NCBI GenBank assembly: GCA_963704885.1
Contig: CAVPIB010000001.1
Span: forward strand, 416,001 to 480,000
Direction of reading: 5' to 3'
Source: an uncultured Actinomycetes bacterium
GTDB lineage: Bacteria > Actinomycetota > UBA4738 > HRBIN12
Length of the DNA: 64,000 bases
Both the position numbers and the translations under genes were made by a program. The notes beneath the pieces were generated by a model. It was not told the origin of the DNA. It searched no databases and saw nothing but the letters and a program-made list of their open reading frames with translations. Below are positions 38,926-49,226 of this stretch, piece after piece (position 1 is the stretch's first letter; the number at the start of each line of letters is the position of its first letter).

Positions 38926-38981
38926 TTGACAACCCGCCACCAACCCGCGTAGGCTCGGTTCCAGTTATGAGAATCATTCTC
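38926..38981 (+). promoter_or_regulatory. znuC promoter with a Fur/Zur-type box
   Basis: TTGACA (38926)-N18-TAGGCT (38950). Palindrome GAGAAT-C-ATTCTC at 38969-38981, upstream of an operon encoding a Fur-family regulator. Confidence 0.8.
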
Positions 38982-39011
38982 GACTACTCGAGACGTTCCG
39001 AGGTGAACTGA

Positions 39012-39788
39012 GTGGAGGCCGTCGATCGTCGCAACGAGTCGACCTCGACCCTGCTCGAGGCGCGGAACGTGACCTTCGCCTACGGGCGCACTGACGTTCT
39101 CCAGGACGTGAGCCTCTCGATCGGACCGGGTGAGTTCGTGGCGCTGGTGGGGCCGAACGGTTCGGGGAAGTCCACCCTCCTGCGGATCCTCCTCGGCGTG
39201 CTGGCACCACGAGCGGGGTCCGTGTCGCTCTTCGGGACCACGCCACGGCATCTCCGTGATCGATCGCGACTCGGTTACGTCCCGCAGCGGCCCTCGCTCG
39301 CGTCCGAGGTCCCGGCGACCGTCGCCGAGATCGTGTCTGCGGGACGGCTCGAGCGAGGCCGTTGGTGGCGGCGGCTGGGCGATGCCGATGGGCAAGCGGT
39401 CCAGCATGCTCTGGAATCGGTCGGCCTGGTCCCGGACGCTGAGCGGCCGCTGAACGAGCTCTCGGGCGGACAGCAGCAGCGTGTATTCATCGCACGGGCG
39501 CTGGCGAGCGAGCCGCAACTCTTGGTGCTGGACGAGCCGATCGCCGGCGTCGACGCCGAGTCCCAGCGCCGGTTCCGCGACTCCTTGGTTCATCTCATCC
39601 AGGAGCACGGCGCCGGCGTGCTCCTCGTGTCGCACGAGCTGTCGGCCGTTGCTCACGACCTGGATCGTGTGATCGTCCTGAAAGGCCGGGTGCTCTTCGA
39701 TGGACCGCCGGCCCAGCTGGCAGCCTCCGGCGTGTCCCTCGGAGTGCACGCGGAGGATCTTCCTCTATGGCTGGAAGGGCTCCGATGA
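39012..39788 (+). CDS. znuC: Zn/Mn ABC ATP-binding protein (ZnuC-like)
   Basis: GPNGSGKST, GYVPQR, LSGGQQQRVFIARAL, LDEP. Confidence 0.88.
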   Translation: MEAVDRRNESTSTLLEARNVTFAYGRTDVLQDVSLSIGPGEFVALVGPNGSGKSTLLRILLGVLAPRAGSVSLFGTTPRHLRDRSRLGYVPQRPSLASEVPATVAEIVSAGRLERGRWWRRLGDADGQAVQHALESVGLVPDAERPLNELSGGQQQRVFIARALASEPQLLVLDEPIAGVDAESQRRFRDSLVHLIQEHGAGVLLVSHELSAVAHDLDRVIVLKGRVLFDGPPAQLAASGVSLGVHAEDLPLWLEGLR

Positions 39789-40633
39789 TCGCCGCACTGC
39801 CACTTCCGTATCCGTTCGACACGACCGCGATGCAGACCGCGTTGGTCGCATGCGTCGCCGTCGGCACGGTCGCTCCCATGATCGGAACGTTCCTGGTCCA
39901 GAAGCGCCTGTCGTTGATCGGCGACGGCGTCGGACACGTTGCGTTCGCGGGCGTGGGCGCAGGGTTGCTTCTCGGCGTCTGGCCCGTCTGGACGGCGCTG
40001 GTGTTCGCGGTGATAGGGGCCGTCGGTGTCGAGTTCCTGCGGATACGCCGCAAGGCGTCCGGAGATCTGGCGCTCGCCCTCTTCTTCTATACGGGTATCG
40101 CGCTGGGCGTCGTGTTCGCCAGCCGCGCCGGCAACCTGGACTTCGAGACGCTCCCGTACCTGTTCGGGGATCCGTTCACGGTGACCCGCACCGGCCTCGC
40201 CACGCTCCTGGCCCTCGGCGTCGTCGTCATGGCCGGCGCCGGCGCCCTGCGGCGCGTCCTGTTCGCCGTCGTTACCGATGAAGACTGGTCCCGGGTGGCG
40301 GGGCTCCCAGTCGAGGGACTCAGCATCGTCCTGGCGGCGCTGACCGCGGCCGTCATCGTCGCCGGGATGCGGGTGGTAGGGATCCTCCTGGTGGCGGCGA
40401 TGACGGTCCTCCCGGTGGCTTCTGCCCAGCTGCTCGCGCGCTCGTTCCGGAACACGCTGCGACTCGCCGTGGCGATCGGAGGGATGTCATCCGTCCTCGG
40501 CCTTGCCCTCGGCCGGATCCTGCATGTCGCCCCGGGCGGTGCGATCGTCCTGGTAGCGGCGGCGTTCTTCGCGGGCGTTGCGCTGGTGAAGGGTGGAGCG
40601 CTCAAGGTGTTCGAGATCGAGGCGCACCGGTGA
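39785..40633 (+). CDS. znuB: Zn/Mn ABC permease (ZnuB-like)
   Basis: SLIGDGVGHVAFAG, YLFGD, VVGILLVAA. Confidence 0.88.
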   Translation: MIAALPLPYPFDTTAMQTALVACVAVGTVAPMIGTFLVQKRLSLIGDGVGHVAFAGVGAGLLLGVWPVWTALVFAVIGAVGVEFLRIRRKASGDLALALFFYTGIALGVVFASRAGNLDFETLPYLFGDPFTVTRTGLATLLALGVVVMAGAGALRRVLFAVVTDEDWSRVAGLPVEGLSIVLAALTAAVIVAGMRVVGILLVAAMTVLPVASAQLLARSFRNTLRLAVAIGGMSSVLGLALGRILHVAPGGAIVLVAAAFFAGVALVKGGALKVFEIEAHR

Positions 40634-41061
40634 CCGAGACCGTTCACCAGACGACCGACATCCGGCTACGGGAGGCCGGACAGCGCTACACGGATCAGCG
40701 TCGCGAGCTGGTGGAGTTGCTAGCGAACCATGGCCCGCTCTCTATCCCCGAGGTGATGAGCGGCCATCGAGGGCTGAAGCAGAGCTCTGTCTACCGCAAC
40801 CTCGCTGTGCTGGAGCACGCAGGCGTGGTGCGGCGAGTCGTCACGGACGAGGAGTTCGGACGTTACGAGCTGGCCGAGGACCTGACCGGGCATCACCACC
40901 ATCTGATCTGCTCGACTTGCGGCCGTGTCGAGGACGTGACCGTCCCTCCTACGCTTGAGGGAACTCTGGATCGCACCCTCGACCGCCTGGCGAGGCGCGC
41001 AGGCTTCGCCGACGTCGATCACCGGCTGGACCTGATCGGCACGTGTGGCACCTGCGCCTGA
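40630..41061 (+). CDS. zur: Fur-family regulator, probably Zur
   Basis: SSVYRNL, HHHHLICSTCG, CGTC. Adjacent znuCB. Confidence 0.82.
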   Translation: MTETVHQTTDIRLREAGQRYTDQRRELVELLANHGPLSIPEVMSGHRGLKQSSVYRNLAVLEHAGVVRRVVTDEEFGRYELAEDLTGHHHHLICSTCGRVEDVTVPPTLEGTLDRTLDRLARRAGFADVDHRLDLIGTCGTCA

Positions 41062-41066
41062 GACCG

Positions 41067-41774
41067 TTACGGGGTCAGGTACGGCCGCCGCGGCTGGGGG
41101 ATGCCGGTCACCCGGCTCGCATCGACGATGATCTGGTTTCCGAGCGGGTAGATGCGGCCCGTGACGCTCACCCAGTCGTCGGCCTGGAATCGTCCCGGTG
41201 GGACGTTCACCACCAGGACCTGTGCGCTGGTGGCATCGGCCACACAGCACGTGATCACGTAGCGGGTGAGCAGGATCTCGTCGGCCGCGGTGCCGGTCTC
41301 ACGCCAGACGAATCCCTCCAGCGCCACCTGCTCGCCGGCACGCGAGCGAAGGGCGACCATCCCCGCCTTCGACGTCTGCGCGGCAGCCACGTCGATGAAG
41401 GACAACTCTCCCGAGGCGATGTCGTCGGCCGAAACGCTCACGCCGGATCCCACGAACCCGGCGCGTCGGCCGAGCGCATAGCCGGAGAGCGTGGCGGGGG
41501 GCAGGGCCACGATCAGTGCCACGGGGATCGCGATCACGGCGAGCGTCCAGGAAGTGGTGGGAAGCAAGGGGTCCCGGTTCACGGTCCTGGCGCTGGCAAG
41601 CCGCAGCACGGCGGCGATCGTCAGCAGTGCCGCGCCGGTCGGTACGACCCAAAACGTCCTGGTCGACAGATAAAGCGACCAGCGCCCAGTGACCAGGAGG
41701 AACCAGAACAAGCCGGCCCAGGCCACCAGGACAAGTCCTGCCGCCACGCGAGATGCGTTCCATGACCGGTTCAA
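41067..41774 (-). CDS. TIGR03943/YcgQ-like (DUF1980) permease partner
   Basis: N-terminal TM helices, LEGFV, RYVITCCVADA, DDWVSVTG, PRRPYL. Confidence 0.88.
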   Translation of the reverse strand: MNRSWNASRVAAGLVLVAWAGLFWFLLVTGRWSLYLSTRTFWVVPTGAALLTIAAVLRLASARTVNRDPLLPTTSWTLAVIAIPVALIVALPPATLSGYALGRRAGFVGSGVSVSADDIASGELSFIDVAAAQTSKAGMVALRSRAGEQVALEGFVWRETGTAADEILLTRYVITCCVADATSAQVLVVNVPPGRFQADDWVSVTGRIYPLGNQIIVDASRVTGIPQPRRPYLTP

Positions 41775-42784
41775 CCGAACACCACCTGCATCCACATCGT
41801 CCCGACGAGCGTGACCGAGAACACCACCCCGGTGACGGTCCACAGGAACGTCTTGCTGAAGGTCCCCACGTAGAGCGCGGCTAGCTTCAGGTCGATCATG
41901 GGACCGGCTACCAGGAACGCCAGCTGCGCGGAGGGGCCGAACAGCGTGAACGACGACGCGACGAACGCGTCCGACTCCGAGCAGAGCGACATCAGGAACG
42001 CGAGCACCATCATGGCCACCAGCGAGAGGATCGGGAGGTCCGCGACCTTGCCGACGAGCGCCTGGGGAACGAACGTCTGGACCGCCGCCGCGATGGCCGC
42101 TCCCATCACCAGGAAGCGGCCCATGAACACCACGTCGCCCGTGAGATGGGAAGCGAACCGCGCCCAACGCCGTTGGTCGGGCTCCTGCTCCTCCGCGACA
42201 TCGTCGTGCCGCGGACGCAGCAGATCCTCTTTGCGGGTGTTGCCCACCACCCATCCGACCGCGACGGCCACTAGGAAGCCCAGGGCAATCCGTCCGAGCA
42301 CCATCGTCCAGAGCGTGTCCCGACCGCGGTAGGCGACGAACGTCGACGCTACGACCACGGGATTCAGGATGGGTGCGGCGAGCATGAACGTGACGGCGGC
42401 CGCAGGTGCCAGCCCTTTCTGGGCCAGCCGTCGCGCAACCGGCACCGAGCCGCACTCGCAGACCGGGAAGGCCACCCCTGCGAGCGCGGCGGCGGGGAGC
42501 TGCAACGGACGGGGTAGGTGTCCCAGCCGTGCGAACACCGAGGTGGGGACGAACACTTCGATCGCCGCGGATACGAATGCCCCAAGCAGGACGAACGGCA
42601 TCGCCTCGACCAGCAACGAACCGAACACGATCAGGAAGTTCTGGAGCCACGCGATGCGCTCGGGGTCGGCCACGCGGACGACTAACGCGAGCACGGCGAG
42701 CGTTGCGATCACCAGGAGCGCGGGCCGTCGCGACGATCTCGACTGAGGTGGCGAGACGGGAGGGCGCGCCACGTCCACGGCCAT
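41771..42784 (-). CDS. DUF318/YcgR-like predicted permease
   Basis: EAMPFVLLG, FPVCECGSVPVARRL, LAAPILNP, SLCSESDAF, GPMIDLK. Confidence 0.9.
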   Translation of the reverse strand: MAVDVARPPVSPPQSRSSRRPALLVIATLAVLALVVRVADPERIAWLQNFLIVFGSLLVEAMPFVLLGAFVSAAIEVFVPTSVFARLGHLPRPLQLPAAALAGVAFPVCECGSVPVARRLAQKGLAPAAAVTFMLAAPILNPVVVASTFVAYRGRDTLWTMVLGRIALGFLVAVAVGWVVGNTRKEDLLRPRHDDVAEEQEPDQRRWARFASHLTGDVVFMGRFLVMGAAIAAAVQTFVPQALVGKVADLPILSLVAMMVLAFLMSLCSESDAFVASSFTLFGPSAQLAFLVAGPMIDLKLAALYVGTFSKTFLWTVTGVVFSVTLVGTMWMQVVFG

Positions 42785-44085
42785 CAGCAGTACCTCGAGA
42801 ACCCGACCGCGAACCCCGGATACGCGTCCGCGAACAGGGGAGTGCCGAAGGATGGCGAGGTCGATGTCTTCATCACCCCGACGACCGAATCGGACGTCGT
42901 TCCGCTCGCGACCATCACGTCCTCGTCCAGGAAGAGGCCTCCGGCTACGCTCGCCGCGACGACCGGAGCGCCCAGCGCGTCGTTCACCGACGTGGCAACG
43001 TCGGGCGGATCGTCTAGAGCGCCGTACGCGGTTCCCGTCGTTGTGAGGACGAACGTGGCGTCGGCGACCTGCCTCTGCACAGCGGCGACCATCGCTTCCG
43101 TTCGGCGCTCCAGCCGCTTCAAGGGACCGCTCACCACCACTCCCAGGATGTCGGTGATGCCGTCGGAGCCGTAGCCGGATCCGAGCAACCGGGAGATCTG
43201 CGGAACGAGGTCGCTCGCGCCCAACGCGAGATCGTCGCGATCGCTATCCACGTACCACGTCCCTCCGATCAACCCCCGTTCGGTCTCGTCGTCGGCGATG
43301 AGGCCGATCAGGGCGCGTTGTTCGTTCGCGCGATCCCAGTCGTCGGGGAAGGTGGCGATGATCGAAGTGGGCGCGTCGGAGCTCCACGCCCGAACCGCCG
43401 CTCCGTCTGGATCCCGGATGATGGTTCCGGTGACGCCGTGCTGGGACGGAAGACCGCCGCTACCGATCGTGGTGAGGATGGCGGCCGGATCTACCGGCAA
43501 CGAACCCGTCGTCCCGTCCAATGTCCAAGCACCCTCTCGGCGCAGCGCCTTGACCCAAGGTGTTCGGGCGTGTCTGAACTGGATGCTCCCGACTGCCTTC
43601 CAGACGATCTCGACCACGAGCGGGGATCCTGTTCCCGGTTGGACGACGTCCTCTATGGGCGTGCCACTCCTCACTTCCGGATGTGGGCGGTCGAAGCCGA
43701 TCAGTTCGGCCAGGGTCGGGGCGATCCGATCGACGGCGATCCCATCGGCCAGTTGGCCCGGGACGATGCCTCGTCCGAAGAAGATGATCGGAACGGCGTT
43801 CCTCGATGGGGCGTACGGGACCTGAGGCCATGGGACGCCGTCGTCCTCGGCCAGACCCGGACCTGGCGGCGTCGCACCCATCACTTCCGGGGAGCGACCC
43901 TGCCGGTAGCCGGCCGCGATCTGGTCCCTGAGCGTCGCTGGGAGCGAACAGAACGGGAGCGGACCCGCCGACTCCTCCTGCGGCGCGCAGCTGTTGCCCA
44001 CGCAGAGCGCACGCATCGCAACGGCGGGGGCTCCCACCAGCGCCAACGCGACGACCAGCACGGTGAGACGTCGCCCGGGTGCCAT
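42784..44085 (-). CDS. Secreted alkaline phosphatase-superfamily-like protein, permuted and lacking catalytic residues
   Basis: VPIIFFG...RIAPTLAELIG...GTP precedes LVVEIVWK...TIGSGGLPSQHGVTG. Paralogous to the gene at 44146. Confidence 0.7.
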   Translation of the reverse strand: MAPGRRLTVLVVALALVGAPAVAMRALCVGNSCAPQEESAGPLPFCSLPATLRDQIAAGYRQGRSPEVMGATPPGPGLAEDDGVPWPQVPYAPSRNAVPIIFFGRGIVPGQLADGIAVDRIAPTLAELIGFDRPHPEVRSGTPIEDVVQPGTGSPLVVEIVWKAVGSIQFRHARTPWVKALRREGAWTLDGTTGSLPVDPAAILTTIGSGGLPSQHGVTGTIIRDPDGAAVRAWSSDAPTSIIATFPDDWDRANEQRALIGLIADDETERGLIGGTWYVDSDRDDLALGASDLVPQISRLLGSGYGSDGITDILGVVVSGPLKRLERRTEAMVAAVQRQVADATFVLTTTGTAYGALDDPPDVATSVNDALGAPVVAASVAGGLFLDEDVMVASGTTSDSVVGVMKTSTSPSFGTPLFADAYPGFAVGFSRYC

Positions 44086-44145
44086 GTGTTCGAGGCTACC
44101 GCTTGGGTTGTCGTTACGGGCGTGGTCGGGGACCCTAGTCGGCCA

Positions 44146-45796
44146 GTGACCCCCAAACGCTTGGTCTTATTCCTGCTCGCCCTTGGGCTCGTCGCGTCCT
44201 CCGCCGTCGCGCTTCCCAGGGCGCCGGCCCGCGCGCAGTCCTCTGATCAGGACTTGGCTGATCTGGCTTGCTCGCTGCCGCACGACTTCTTGCTTAGAAC
44301 CTGGCGAGGGTGGCGCCTGGACCGAGGCGCTCAACTCTCCTACATCCCGCAGGAGCCGAACTTCGTGGGCGCGGGACTGCCTCATGTGGGTCCGTGGGAC
44401 TACGTCCAAGACGTGCCGATGCTCTGGTACGGCCCGCCGTTCGTTCCCGCGAGAGGGAGCGTGTCGAGGCCTGTAACCGTTGCGGGCATCGCGCCCACGG
44501 TCGGCGAACTCCTGCACTTCGGCGGGTTCCGGGCGATCGATGGCCGGCCCATGACCGAGGCCATAGAGCCGAATGACCGGGTGCCGAGACTTATCGTCAC
44601 GATGATCTGGGACGCGGGTGGCGTCAACGTCCTGGACGAATGGCCCGACGCGCACCCCTATCTGGATCAACTGATCGCGAAGGGCACATGGTACGAGGAC
44701 ACGTCCGTGGGTTCGTCGCCGACGAGCACCGCCCAGGTCCACGCCACGATCGGCACGGGCGCGTTCCCGAACCACCACGGGATCACCGGCCACCATCTGA
44801 TCATCGGCGACCGGCTGACCAGCCCATGGAACGCCGGCCCCGCGTTCATGATCGAGCCCACGATCGGGGACCTCTACGACGTCGCCATGGACAACGAGCC
44901 CGTCGTGGGCATCGTGGGCACGGTCGACATCCACTTCGGGATGCTGGGGCACGGGTCGTTCTTCACAGGTGGTGACCGCGACATCGCACTCACTCGATCG
45001 GTGATCGGGGGCGAGACCCTCACCGACGAGGGGTTCGAGTGGAACCTGCCGCCGCGCGACGCCGCGTACTACAAGCTCGCGAAGTACGCGAACGACGTGC
45101 CCGGGTTCGACGATGACGTGCGCCGTGTCGACCAGGCCGACGGCAAGCTCGATGGCCTGTGGCGCGACAACGCCATCGACCAGCTCCTGAAGGGATTCGA
45201 CACGCCCGCGCGCACGCCATACCAGGAACGCGTGATCGAAACGGTCATCCAGAAGGAGGGGTTCGGCGAGGACGAGATCCCCGATCTGCTGTACCTGAAC
45301 TTCAAGGAGATCGACTACGTCAGCCACGTCTGGTCCATGAACTCACTCGAGATGCGCGATGCAGTAGTCGTGCAGGATCAGGCGCTCAAGCGGTTCGTCT
45401 CGTTCCTCAACGAGCAGGTCGGGAAAGGGACCTGGGTGCTCGCGCTCACCGCGGATCACGGCGCCATGCCCGACCCCGAGTTCTCGGGCGGTTTCCAGAT
45501 CTCGACGGGACCGATAGGGACGGGGATAGATGAGAGCTTCGATACGGACGGCGACGACATACCGGTCGTGGATCTGGTCCAGCCCTCGCAGGTCTTCCTT
45601 AACGTGGATGAGCTCGAGGAGAACGGCTTCACGATCGGCGACGTTTCGCGATACATCATGACGCTGACGCAGGCGCAGACGGCGGGCCCGGGTCAAACGG
45701 TCGATCCCGGCGACCGCCAACGATACCGTGTTCCAGGCGGCGTTCCCATCCCAGCTGATGGAGAGCCTGCCCTGTCTGCCCGAGGCTCGCCGGTAG
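44146..45796 (+). CDS. Secreted PafA/NPP-like alkaline phosphatase-superfamily enzyme, apparently circularly permuted (frameshift near 45708)
   Basis: IWD, PTSTAQVHATIGTG..P..HGI, DYVSH and LTADHG motifs. Removing one base near 45708 gives VFQAAFPSQLMESLPCLPEARR-stop. Confidence 0.85.
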
Positions 45797-45809: not shown

Positions 45810-48800
45810 ATGACGCAAACCGACGGCTCGCTTCGACCGACGCACGCGGACGTTTCCGTCGGTGGCAGTGGCCGGCTGGGCTCCTGGTGGGCCATCGGTG
45901 GGTTCACTGTCTTGATGCTGTTGGCGCTCAGCTGGCCCTTCTTGCGCGATCCCTCGCTGTCCGCCCCCACTCGCGACCCGGCCTGGTACACGTGGCGTGC
46001 GAACGTGATCATGGAGTCCGATCCCGCGTCGGTGGTCGGTGAGTGGGGGCCCGAGGGGCTGTTCTCAGGCGGGTACAGGGTCACCACGCCACTCGCAGGC
46101 GCACTGCTCCAGCGCGTGGCCGGGATCGACACGTACTCATTCAGCGCCTTCCTCATGATCGGCATCCCGGTGCTGACCGGCTTGGCGCTCGGTGTCGGCG
46201 CGCTCAGGAGCCGAGGCGATCCGCTGGCGATGCTCTTGACCATGCTCGCCACGGTCGCCTTGTTCCTGACCACCCCGTACGTCGGCTATCTGGACAACAT
46301 CACGGTCCTGTTCCTGCTGTCGCTCACGCTCCCGTTCCTGCATGAAGCGCGAACCTCGTGGGGAGCGCGCTCAGCCCTGTTCCTGATCGGGATGGCGGCT
46401 GCATTCACGCATCCGACCACCTGCGTGGTCTTCGGCGTGGTGTTGATGGCCGTCTTCGGCTGGCACTTCCTGACCAGCCGCTTCTCGCTGGGGTCGGCGC
46501 TCAAGGCCGACGGACCGATGCTGATGGCAGCAGGGTTCGGGATGATCGGCGGCCTCGCGATGTGGATGGTCGGGATCTGGGGACAGACCGCGAGTCTCGC
46601 GGAGGCGGCGCTACCGCCGCCGTACACGAAGGAGTTCTTCACCGCCCGCCTGGTCGAGTGGGTCGGGTCGCTTCAGCCGATCGTGATCGTTCCGTTCATC
46701 GTGACAGCGATCGTCTCCACGGTCTTGCTGGCACGGCGGGAACGTCGACCTGCTCACACCTACGACCTGGCTTCCATCGGCTGGATGCTCGCCTTCGTCG
46801 GTGTTCTGACGGTGTTCACGTCAACGGTGGTCCCCTACTACCGATTCATGAACGCGTCGGCCGCGCCGATGGCTCTCACCGGTCTCGGCGCCTTCGCGGC
46901 GATCCGCTGGTTCCTGCGCCTGGACGGGAGGGCTCGGATCGCGGGGGTCGCCGGCGCGTTGTTGGTGGTGGGCTCGCTCGGTTGGGTGCTCGTCGACGGT
47001 TTGCAGCATCGATGGGTGACCGAGAAGAACCAATGGGCCAACCAGGGCGTGCGGACCTCGCTCGCCGCCGTGCATGAGGTGGTCAACGACTCGGGTCCGC
47101 GACCGATCGTCTTGGTCATGAACTACAACGACACCGACGATGCGACGGGCACGAACACCGCGTACGGATGGGCCAAGACCTTCACGAACGTGTTCCGCAC
47201 CGGGCTCGACGGGGACTCGGCCGGTTACCAGACGACATTCCTGGGGACCGTGGACGATCTCCGTGCCGGGCGGGCGACGGTCGGCGCCAGCGAGGGCTAC
47301 ACAGAGGCGGCGTCGCAGCACTTCGACGAGCTCCAGACGCGCATGTCCTCGTATCCGGAGGACCCACTCGTCTTCTTGATCGGCCAGTACTACCGAGGGC
47401 TCTGCAACGGGGTCGAAGCCTGTGATGAGACGACCGAGCAGCGGCTCTTCGAGGAGGCGATCGCCGGCGCGATCGAGGTGGGTCCGGACACTTACGCGTT
47501 GACGGGGGATGGGTTCTTCACGCCGCCGACCGATGCGGTAGAGCTCGCTCGTGATGCCGCCACGACCGAGGCCGATCGGTTGGAGAACCATCCCGGCGCG
47601 TTCGGTGACCCTCTGCACACGCTCAGGGTGCTCTTCGGCCTGGCGTTCCTCCTGGTCCTGCCTGGCATGATCGCGGCGCCATGGTTCGGCCTGCGTGACA
47701 CCGCCGGCCGGATCGCACTCGTCCCCGCGATGTCGATCGTGCTCACCCTCCTGTCCGGCATCGCGGTGCTCGCCATCTGGCGAGGGCCGCTCACCACTCC
47801 GAAGGCCTGGGTGGTGGTGGCCGCCTCGGCGACGGTGGCGGCAGGTCTCCGGCTGGGGGCGCCAGCTCTGCTCCGTGTCCTGAACTCGTTCGGTGGGTTC
47901 TTCAACGACCTGTTCGGCGTCTTTTCCAACAAGGCGTTCGCCACGCTGATGGGTGTGCAGTTCTTGGTGCAGGCCGGACAGGGCGTGATCCAGGGGGCGA
48001 TCGCGAAATCGATCGCGTTCGGCGGCGAGAAGGGCTTCGACGTCACGGTGGTGCCTTCGGCGCAATACCTGTTGAAGGTGGTGCTGGCGCTGTACGTGCC
48101 GTACACGCTGGTGAGCCCGTTCATCGGCGTGGTCATCGACCGGACCGAACGGCGCCGGATCCTCACGTGGTCCAACATCGTGGTCGCGGGCGTGGTCGCC
48201 GTGGTCGCGGTCGCGTTCATGTTGCCGCTCGGGAGCGAAACCTCCGAGGGCAACGTGGGCGCGACGGTGGCGTTGATCGTCGGGCTACTCTTCATCCAGG
48301 GTTGCGTGCGCGTGGCTCTCGCGGTGAAGAGCGCCGCCATCCCCGACGTGCTGTCGGGGATCGACCTGCTTCAGGGGAACGGCCTTTCGCAGGCAGGTGG
48401 AGCGCTCTTCCAGGTGATCGGGATCGGCTTCGCGTTCGGCGCGGCGGCGGCATTCCCCACGTGGATCGTGGTGGTCCTGGGTGCCGGAGTCCTGGTCGTG
48501 GCGTCGGTGGTCGCCCGAAGGCTCGAGCGGATGGAGCTGCATCCGAAGCAGACCAGCTTCGGCGCGGAGGCCAAGCAGGTGATCGCGAACATCGTGGCCG
48601 GCTTGAAGGAGGTCGCCTCGCGCCCGCCGGCCGCGCTCGGGTTGTTCTCGTTCCAGATGCTGCGCTACCAGTTCTGGGGTTTCTGCCTGTTCACGTTCGG
48701 CCTGTACGCGAAGAACCTCGTGGAGAGCGGTGCCGACAACCTCGGGCTGGCGCTCGTCGGCGGTGGCGGGTTCTTGGGTGGCGCGCTCGGCCTAGTGCTC

Positions 48801-49226
48801 GCGCAGAAGTGGAAGGATCGCGTGCCGCCCATCCGGTTGTTGCTTGGCGCCATGTTCGCGCTCGGCGCCGGGGCTTTGGTGTTCGGCTCTCTCGTGTCAC
48901 TGGCCGGGTTCGCCGCCCTCTTGTTCGTGGGGTTCTTCACGTTCTTCCTGGGCAAGATCTCGGCCGACACGATCATGCAGCAGTCCATGCCCGACGACTT
49001 CCGCGGCCGCGCGTTCGCGCTGTTCGACATCGCCTATAACCTAGGATTCATCATCCCCGCGCTGATCTTGTCGTTCCTGTGGGTGGAGGGCGACGCCTTG
49101 CGGACCCGCGCGATCCTCATGGTGTCCGGTGCCGTGTTCCTTGCTCTCACCATGCTCATCTGGCGCTGGTCGATACGGATCCGCGACCAGTTCGCTCCCC
49201 AGGACGACCTGCTGGTCATCGAGTGA
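45810..49226 (+). CDS. 1138-aa polytopic membrane protein: GT-C-like N-terminal region fused to an MFS domain
   Basis: TM1 then RDPAWYTWRA, FTHPTT, PYYRF, soluble loop. C-terminal ~12 TM with PFIGVVIDRTERRRIL and MPDDFRGRAFALFD. Confidence 0.75.
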   Translation: MTQTDGSLRPTHADVSVGGSGRLGSWWAIGGFTVLMLLALSWPFLRDPSLSAPTRDPAWYTWRANVIMESDPASVVGEWGPEGLFSGGYRVTTPLAGALLQRVAGIDTYSFSAFLMIGIPVLTGLALGVGALRSRGDPLAMLLTMLATVALFLTTPYVGYLDNITVLFLLSLTLPFLHEARTSWGARSALFLIGMAAAFTHPTTCVVFGVVLMAVFGWHFLTSRFSLGSALKADGPMLMAAGFGMIGGLAMWMVGIWGQTASLAEAALPPPYTKEFFTARLVEWVGSLQPIVIVPFIVTAIVSTVLLARRERRPAHTYDLASIGWMLAFVGVLTVFTSTVVPYYRFMNASAAPMALTGLGAFAAIRWFLRLDGRARIAGVAGALLVVGSLGWVLVDGLQHRWVTEKNQWANQGVRTSLAAVHEVVNDSGPRPIVLVMNYNDTDDATGTNTAYGWAKTFTNVFRTGLDGDSAGYQTTFLGTVDDLRAGRATVGASEGYTEAASQHFDELQTRMSSYPEDPLVFLIGQYYRGLCNGVEACDETTEQRLFEEAIAGAIEVGPDTYALTGDGFFTPPTDAVELARDAATTEADRLENHPGAFGDPLHTLRVLFGLAFLLVLPGMIAAPWFGLRDTAGRIALVPAMSIVLTLLSGIAVLAIWRGPLTTPKAWVVVAASATVAAGLRLGAPALLRVLNSFGGFFNDLFGVFSNKAFATLMGVQFLVQAGQGVIQGAIAKSIAFGGEKGFDVTVVPSAQYLLKVVLALYVPYTLVSPFIGVVIDRTERRRILTWSNIVVAGVVAVVAVAFMLPLGSETSEGNVGATVALIVGLLFIQGCVRVALAVKSAAIPDVLSGIDLLQGNGLSQAGGALFQVIGIGFAFGAAAAFPTWIVVVLGAGVLVVASVVARRLERMELHPKQTSFGAEAKQVIANIVAGLKEVASRPPAALGLFSFQMLRYQFWGFCLFTFGLYAKNLVESGADNLGLALVGGGGFLGGALGLVLAQKWKDRVPPIRLLLGAMFALGAGALVFGSLVSLAGFAALLFVGFFTFFLGKISADTIMQQSMPDDFRGRAFALFDIAYNLGFIIPALILSFLWVEGDALRTRAILMVSGAVFLALTMLIWRWSIRIRDQFAPQDDLLVIE

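Follow-up and report, generated by a model that had tools for sequence, protein, structure and literature searches.

We analysed a 64,000-nucleotide stretch of DNA (hereafter the window) from an uncultured Actinomycetes bacterium (assembly GCA_963704885.1, contig CAVPIB010000001.1, positions 416,001 to 480,000). At its centre of interest is the gene P0001, which encodes a predicted exported protein of the PafA-like phosphatase fold with one N-terminal hydrophobic segment. The gene heads a three-gene operon and stands head-to-head with an active-type paralog, here called the enzyme; P0001 and its homologs are called the inactive family. A first-pass annotation, made from the letters of the sequence, had described P0001 as a divergent pseudoenzyme copy of its neighbour, and the coordinates, strand, 433-residue length, 60-bp head-to-head spacer and motifs that it quoted are all present in the sequence. 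The features of the locus are collected in Table 1.

For comparison we used a genome scan with the enzyme profile, whose best 80 of 181 stretches yielded 78 loci with flanks of at most 10 kb. The hosts seen are uncultured genome bins, so that experimental tests must be heterologous. Nearly all are labelled Actinomycetota; two loci are labelled Planctomycete (L035) and Omnitrophota (L053), yet their genes nest among those of Actinomycetota with the same gene order, and mislabelling or a binning error is likely.

Table 1. Features of the P0001 locus (positions in the window)
Feature	Position	Strand	Evidence or remark
Fur/Zur-type palindromic box preceding the znu genes	38968..38982	+	sole match in the window
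znuC-znuB-like ABC (ATP-binding cassette) genes and Fur-family (Zur-like) regulator	39012..41061	+	convergent with the P0001 operon
DUF1980/TIGR03943 (YcgQ-, ScfB-like) membrane protein, invariant TCC motif, operon gene three	41067..41774	-	PF21537 and TIGR03943 above cut-off
ArsP_1/DUF318 (YcgR-, ScfA-like) permease, invariant CEC and CSESD motifs, operon gene two	41771..42784	-	PF03773 E 2.5e-56
P0001, pseudoenzyme gene, 433 residues; PafA-like fold of the alkaline phosphatase superfamily, circularly permuted and devoid of nucleophile and metal ligands	42784..44085	-	homology, profile alignment, fold model
Invariant C433 and stop codon, 1-nt overlap with arsP start; putative disulfide partner of C46	42784..42789	-	
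Vestigial active site: K163 replaces the metal Asp, P200 the Thr nucleophile	43486..43599	-	112-homolog alignment
Permuted block, residues 46-148, equivalent to the C-terminal ~100 residues of PafA; opens with the invariant C46 and has no His Zn ligand	43642..43950	-	profile alignments
C28-x4-C33 motif, specific to the inactive family, membrane-proximal end	43987..44004	-	homolog alignments
Hydrophobic N-terminus (residues 1-27), either a signal peptide or an anchor that stays uncleaved; GRRL, GAPA and LRA conserved	44005..44085	-	
Divergent spacer, 60 bp, conserved short motifs, no Zur-like box	44086..44145	.	
Active-type permuted paralog (enzyme), 549 residues in orthologs, seven catalytic/metal residues kept, C42/C543 pair	44146..45796	+	ortholog comparison
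Membrane protein of 1138 residues 3' of the enzyme: GT-C-glycosyltransferase-like N-terminal part (lead only) and MFS domain	45810..49226	+	MFS_1 E 7.6e-21

Two paralogs on a permuted PafA-like chain

The two divergent genes encode homologous proteins. BLASTP aligns them at 28% identity over 256 columns (E 2e-19), and profile-profile comparison with hhalign gives a colinear match over 414 columns (probability 99.9, E 9e-32); the paralogy proposed in the first-pass annotation thus stands on significant homology. The fold model of P0001 (predicted local distance difference test, pLDDT, 91.2; predicted template modelling score, pTM, 0.88) has the alpha/beta core of the alkaline phosphatase superfamily. 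Its best structural match is PafA (Z 16.7, root-mean-square deviation 3.3 over 271 residues), followed by SPAP, PhnA and NPPs, and the enzyme model matches PafA with Z 18.4 and a deviation of 3.9 over 354 residues. By sequence and fold together, PafA (5tj3; NF042991) and SPAP/PhoK (3q3q, 5xwk) are the closest known relatives of both paralogs. Both fall short of the 650-bit cut-off of the NCBIfam PafA profile NF042991 (21.5 bits for P0001, 104 for the neighbour), and P0001 misses the gathering score of 23 for the Pfam Phosphodiest family PF01663 (20.9 bits, E 3e-4); two fused relatives, P0339 and P0348, score 25.9 and 24.7 bits.

Both paralogs are circular permutants of a PafA-type alkaline phosphatase, with the last ~100 residues of PafA placed at the start of the chain. 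Residues 435-533 of PafA (5tj3) align to residues 47-148 of P0001 (E 0.31) and 43-140 of the neighbour, and in both proteins this C-terminal block precedes the blocks that match the PafA N-terminus, in place of the colinear PafA order. A profile of 114 active-type proteins maps onto 5tj3 in the same manner (42-144 to 434-537, 145-218 to 14-89, and 365-509 to 267-415), and positions 503-553 of the NCBIfam PafA profile are matched by P0001 (E 7e-5). On its own, P0001 shows the permuted order weakly. Structural superposition on PafA covers both models from residue ~145 onward only and ends at PafA 448-453, which is the behaviour expected of an order-keeping aligner on a permutant. Taking into account an 11-residue offset between the chain and author numbering of 5tj3, established from its T79S site, the cut lies near PafA residue 445. 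The first-pass annotation had held that both proteins share one permutation and that this argues against an assembly artefact; the block order is indeed common to the two, and its recurrence in the 78 fetched loci rejects an artefact.

Conserved cysteines flank the cut. In a set of 112 homologs of P0001 of at least 400 residues (out of the best 120 of 449 matches), C46 and C433 are present without exception, and C433 is also found in all 83 members of a more distant set. The equivalent C42/C543 pair occurs in 98 of 101 active-type open reading frames; of the other three, two have shifted tails and one is truncated. As the terminal cysteines of both families map to PafA positions of about 445-448, on either side of the cut, the simplest reading of the alignments is a disulfide that closes it, and C46-C433 in the inactive family, like C42-C543 in the enzyme, probably forms a staple across the permutation. 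Unlike PafA, both paralogs therefore have a chain cut near residue 445, old ends joined with almost no linker, and an added terminal cysteine pair. A more distant permuted PafA-like protein of 620 residues (P0390, at 15293-17155 of L022) has a twin-Arg-like stretch and full catalytic motifs; by inspection it carries no cysteines at the terminal-pair positions, so that the permutation probably predates the staple. No account of a permuted or inactive PafA-like family was found in the literature searched, most subscription papers being outside its reach.

The enzyme retains H80, D156, T195, D390, H394, D437 and H438 in all 101 intact active-type open reading frames. Relative to five orthologs, the copy in the window has one extra base near 45709, which hides its C-terminal cysteine in the frame as read; this frame runs on to 45813, and the shifted frame holds an ortholog-like end including the cysteine. 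The extra base is probably a sequencing error, since similar breaks cluster in one record class. The active family comprises three subtypes that differ at substrate-contacting positions. Tandem arrays of 2 to 4 active-type paralogs, of three subtypes and with full metal sites, occur in L032, L033, L043, L047, L053, L060, L063 (4774-11379, for example), L065, L066, L069, L070, L072, L073, L075, L077 and L078. Unlike PafA, the active paralogs lack K162/R164 in both alignment registers tried. Removal of these residues equalises the mono- and diesterase activities of PafA, according to one study (10.1101/2020.11.24.383182), and their absence points away from a monoesterase; judged by its sequence, the active paralog may be a diesterase or pyrophosphatase. 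In a plasmid collection the enzyme had six partial, low-identity matches and P0001 had none.

Loss of the active site and selection on the inactive family

The catalytic positions have been lost throughout the inactive family. Across the 112 homologs, position 163, the site of a metal-binding Asp, carries Lys in 60, Arg in 19 and Asp in 2, and position 200, equivalent to the nucleophile T79 of PafA, carries Pro in 110, Ser in one and Arg in one; an acid at 163 together with Ser or Thr at 200 occurs in no row. The set of six zinc ligands of PafA (D38, D305, H309, D352, H353 and H486, where D305, H309 and H486 are numbered from the 5tj3 alignment and presumed to be ligands) is not kept in the family. 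Position 88 is His in 2 of 112 rows, DH at the TADH site in none, and the old ligand positions 88, 352 and 353 are variable. In the profile alignment P0001 has lost a segment of about 17 residues that contains the DxxxH motif, along with a cap segment of ~60 residues; a DxxxH pattern anywhere in 312-335 is found in 2 of 112 rows. Compared with PafA, P0001 thus lacks the nucleophile, the metal ligands and ~80 residues. The K162/R164 pair can be placed on P0001 in two registers, two residues apart, with either the conserved R270 or a variable residue at R164.

Most of the first-pass account of this loss is borne out: IWD has become VWK, PTST has become PVDP, and DxxxH is missing. ADH is likewise gone, although its counterpart is not the TTG that was named: the enzyme's TADH aligns to TGTA (residues 350-353), two residues away. 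The N-terminal block has lost its zinc-ligand His but, contrary to the first-pass account, is not devoid of His: H135, off the ligand position, is conserved in 104 of 112 rows. With the nucleophile and all metal ligands lost family-wide, the protein is predicted to be non-catalytic, and no new conserved catalytic constellation was recognised in the family. A quick tree (32 rows, one dropped by the program) separates the inactive and active families by a long, fully supported branch.

The gene for the inactive protein is under purifying selection. The ratio of nonsynonymous to synonymous substitution rates (dN/dS) is 0.15-0.48, below 0.5 in 16 of 16 hand-picked close pairs, as against 0.09-0.18 in 13 of 14 pairs of the enzyme and 0.50 in the remaining, near-identical pair, by a simple method that is biased by high G+C. 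These ratios are 2-3 times those of the enzyme, and mean distances of 0.83 and 0.45 correspond to about twofold faster evolution of the inactive family. The 112 sequences share 23 invariant columns, and 214 clusters at 50% identity match with E <1e-30 (the best 150 of the 214 listed); look-alikes in the Atlas come mainly from unnamed clusters of Actinomycetota. Among the 63 loci that contain the gene, 9 have it split. All nine belong to one class of 33 records, in which the enzyme too is often split, whereas none of the 30 others is split (one is cut by a contig end); this confinement points to sequencing error. Of the outcomes on which the first-pass proposal would have been given up, a lack of homology is countered by the alignments above, neutral decay is rejected by the dN/dS values and the distribution of splits, and absence from relatives is at odds with the presence of the gene in 63 of 78 loci. 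Homology, family-wide catalytic loss and selection agree with the general definition of a pseudoenzyme, activity being predicted absent, and the inactive family is a broad, old pseudoenzyme family that has gone unannotated ('hypothetical protein').

Conservation specific to the inactive family is concentrated at the N-terminus, where residues 9-27 form its single hydrophobic window. Within the first 29 columns, 9 are at least 90% conserved in the inactive family versus 2 in the active family, and mean conservation of these columns relative to the body is 0.75 versus 0.63 in the former and 0.47 versus 0.81 in the enzyme. An AxA site is clear in 98% of the active family and in about two thirds of inactive-family rows. 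Conservation that is higher at the N-terminus than in the body suits a retained anchor or functional surface better than a throw-away signal. Over 45 rows, conservation of the GRRL motif (window 44068-44076, residues 4-6) reaches at least 90%; a twin-arginine translocation (Tat) signal, which it brought to mind, was rejected because the residues that follow do not match the consensus, and a lipoprotein anchor at C28 because no canonical lipobox is visible by eye. C28 and C33 are present in 112 of 112 close homologs and 77 of 83 distant rows, and would form a separate pair at the membrane surface; among the exceptions, five full-length proteins lose both cysteines together and one is truncated. 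In P0339 (661 residues) and P0348 (643 residues) the whole inactive domain is fused behind a five-helix MsrQ/ferric-reductase-like domain (PF01794), which indicates that it can work tethered to a membrane protein. The two are 47% identical along their length and form one clade, hence a single fusion event, and P0348 lacks C28/C33. Among 7999 candidates of 871-2485 residues, a range above that of these two fusions, a search for longer, fused forms gave none.

Operon partners and neighbouring genes

P0001 is followed by adjacent matches to PF03773 (191.4 versus 32.3 bits) and TIGR03943 (101.4 versus 88.8 bits), which constitute a YcgR/YcgQ-type module, these being the families of YcgR and YcgQ. 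The motifs of the permease were judged over 45 rows; for DUF1980, a search by sequence recovered no solved structure (best E 0.26). The gene order is highly regular. In 62 of its 63 loci the pseudoenzyme gene is directly divergent from an active-type gene, and in 60 it is followed by arsP (two of the others are contig-end cuts and one truly lacks it); arsP without the pseudoenzyme gene was found in 0 of 60. In 40 of 46 triples the pseudoenzyme stop codon and the arsP start share 1 nt (two of these triples were later left out of the alignments for a short DUF1980), and arsP and DUF1980 overlap by 4 nt in 41 of 44.

The exceptions are informative about which genes travel together. Among the 15 loci without the pseudoenzyme gene, seven end too soon upstream, three (L055, L058 and L071) have a lone enzyme in a different gene context, and five (L026, L034, L040, L073 and L077) lack the pseudoenzyme gene, arsP and DUF1980 as a block, with zur directly before an intact enzyme and the znu-zur-enzyme-GT/MFS order otherwise kept. 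On the enzyme tree these five occupy five distinct positions, interspersed with block-bearing loci. In L063 the pseudoenzyme gene and arsP are still side by side but have moved beyond znuCB-zur. In total, the pseudoenzyme gene was lost or moved together with the permease module in 6 of 7 informative rearrangements, and the active paralogs beside a single pseudoenzyme gene number from 1 to 4 and belong to three subtypes. Over 30 loci, distances within the inactive family correlate with those of DUF1980 at r 0.82 and of the enzyme at 0.62, the pairs not being independent.

The remaining neighbours relate to metal uptake and the cell envelope. The genes are called znuABC, zur, ycgR and ycgQ here after their family matches and general knowledge of such genes, and the palindromic box is presumed to be a Zur site. 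The same Fur/Zur-type box motif recurs in the corresponding position of 30 of the 78 loci. The gene znuA is present in 43 of 78 loci and absent from the window, which looks like repeated loss from the locus. Where znuA is missing, a Zur-like box was seen directly before znuC in the window (38968-39012) and in L006, L007, L034, L036, L041, L064 and L077. The N-terminal part of the protein downstream of the enzyme has no Pfam match, and its Atlas look-alikes are DUF6541, AftA and PMT_2; this GT-C-like part follows the enzyme in 72 of 78 loci, which suggests an envelope-modifying role for the enzyme. Within the divergent spacer, the pseudoenzyme start is preceded, at a distance of a few bases, by a conserved TAGCNT-like hexamer, and a leaderless transcript is likely; a conserved GGTTGTCG motif precedes the enzyme, even in loci without the block, and longer divergent spacers have GTCACAGACTCTCCA in common.

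Possible roles of the pseudoenzyme

The PF03773 and TIGR03943 genes have the same two-gene arrangement as YcgR/YcgQ of Bacillus subtilis, ScfA/ScfB of Streptococcus pyogenes and SMU.746/747. Unlike these pairs, the operon in the window is headed by a third, exported gene that overlaps the permease start, and it lies between the znu/zur cluster and exported two-zinc enzymes. We prefer, tentatively and without yet counting it as probable, to read P0001 as an accessory subunit of the ArsP_1/DUF1980 module, non-catalytic and on its outer side. In this reading an old branch of the permuted PafA-like enzyme family, no longer catalytic, would have been recruited to a YcgR/YcgQ-type module, becoming its extracytoplasmic, probably membrane-tethered third subunit, and the genomic linkage suggests that it may physically join the permease module. 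A peak of family-specific conservation in the N-terminal segment and C28-x4-C33 fits such a subunit, as do the invariant cysteine motifs of both membrane partners. With regard to the functions listed in the first-pass annotation, a conserved pseudoenzyme paralog is upheld, and the data agree better with an accessory or scaffold role for this module, which that annotation had not considered, than with a heterodimer partner.

The presence of zinc-uptake genes and two-zinc enzymes around the operon suggests that the module serves metal or thiol maturation. In the weakest step of the proposal, the module might hand zinc or thiol-redox equivalents to the neighbouring exported two-zinc enzymes, with the inactive copy as docking surface. 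That ArsP_1, DUF1980 and the stapled inactive copy make up an extracytoplasmic machine loading zinc into, or setting the thiols of, exported permuted phosphodiesterases is unlikely as it stands.

Several observations weigh against an accessory subunit or its maturation role. Joint loss may mirror one shared operon only, as co-deletion need not mean a complex. The enzyme was the bait, so that pseudoenzyme genes distant from it are invisible to the locus scan, and with at most 10 kb of flank covered, the block may lie elsewhere in the five block-less genomes. The enzyme is intact where the block is missing, and a maturation role is thus not obligatory at the locus. L005 lacks arsP and DUF1980 yet keeps an intact pseudoenzyme gene next to the enzyme. 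YcgR/YcgQ homologs form a two-gene operon in streptococci, as described in one report (PMC5584981), and a third subunit is thus not general. A Zur-like box was found upstream of the operon in 0 of 53 regions at up to 3 mismatches, and Zur control of the operon is rejected for want of a box. Branch-rate covariation singles out no one partner: with a three-gene reference rho is 0.56 for arsP, 0.58 for DUF1980 and 0.41 for the enzyme, and with an all-gene reference 0.04, 0.07 and -0.17. A complex prediction for P0001 with ArsP (residues 18-337) and DUF1980 scored 0.10 against a mark of 0.32, with controls not folded, and so counts neither for nor against the subunit.

A rather doubtful alternative, though the strongest of those considered, would have the inactive paralog form a heterodimer with the enzyme or enzymes, assist their folding or regulate them allosterically, the permease genes being merely co-transcribed. 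It would account for the near-constant divergent pairing, for L005, for L045, L074 and L076, where the operon is beside the enzyme though znuCB-zur are not, and for the positive rate covariation under one reference. It is harder to reconcile with eight loci (at least 3 kb upstream) that have intact enzymes and no adjacent pseudoenzyme gene, with the separation from the enzyme in L063, and with the twofold difference in rate. The single pseudoenzyme gene also faces varying numbers of enzymes, and in L064, L068, L074 and L076 a different subtype alone.

Two further alternatives are improbable. In the first, C28-x4-C33 would be redox-active and fed by a membrane electron carrier, either the ArsP/DUF1980 cysteines or the MsrQ-like domain of the fusions, with the phosphatase fold as client-binding body. 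Invariant cysteine motifs in all three operon products and the two PF01794 fusions agree with this thiol relay. MsrQ-like proteins are extracytosolic membrane electron-transfer subunits, widespread in Actinobacteria and paired with ApbE and FMN-binding proteins, according to one paper (PMC8238504), whose main text has no occurrence of 'phosphodiesterase', 'alkaline phosphatase', 'DUF1980' or 'DUF318'. Against the relay, the fusions reflect one event, P0348 lacks both cysteines, and the CxxxxC spacing is unlike the CxxC of thioredoxin.

The second, of similarly slight promise, is a solute-binding or sensor protein, in which a phosphate ester, metal or wall fragment would occupy the emptied site and then be handed on to the permease. 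A basic residue occupies the old metal position in 79 of 112 homologs, several loci including the window have znuCB without znuA, and in one register PafA D163-R164 could correspond to a conserved DRG motif. The register that fits the predicted strand-loop-helix instead puts the variable residues 265 and 267 at K162/R164; znuA and the pseudoenzyme gene co-occur in many loci; and the nucleophile site holds a proline, which has no backbone NH to offer. Ligand binding at the old active site, a first-pass suggestion, is disfavoured because most of its positions, 88, 352 and 353 among them, are variable. A decaying duplicate or a metal-independent new enzyme, to which the raised dN/dS and the nine split genes might point, is very improbable given ratios below 0.5 throughout, the invariant columns, the 214 clusters, the confinement of splits to one record class and the lack of a recognisable new catalytic constellation.

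Reuse of a superfamily fold on a membrane system has a parallel in the periplasmic domain of YejM/PbgA, a pseudo-hydrolase (6vat, rank 50 in the fold search with P0001, E 0.084). Unlike P0001, that domain is not permuted, belongs to another subfamily, is part of its own membrane protein and serves envelope control in Gram-negative bacteria.

The inactive family is real, conserved and apparently undescribed, combining a known fold with an unexpected partner. PafA is a much-studied fold, and its natural, lineage-wide permutation with cysteines paired at the cut offers a test case for fold topology. A 2017 report equates ScfAB with YcgRQ and gives their function as unknown (PMC5584981), and the tight link to P0001 provides a handle on this widespread permease pair. 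If the maturation machine were real, the long-unexplained YcgR/YcgQ/ScfAB pair would gain a testable metalation or thiol-maturation function, with the pseudoenzyme as client adaptor.

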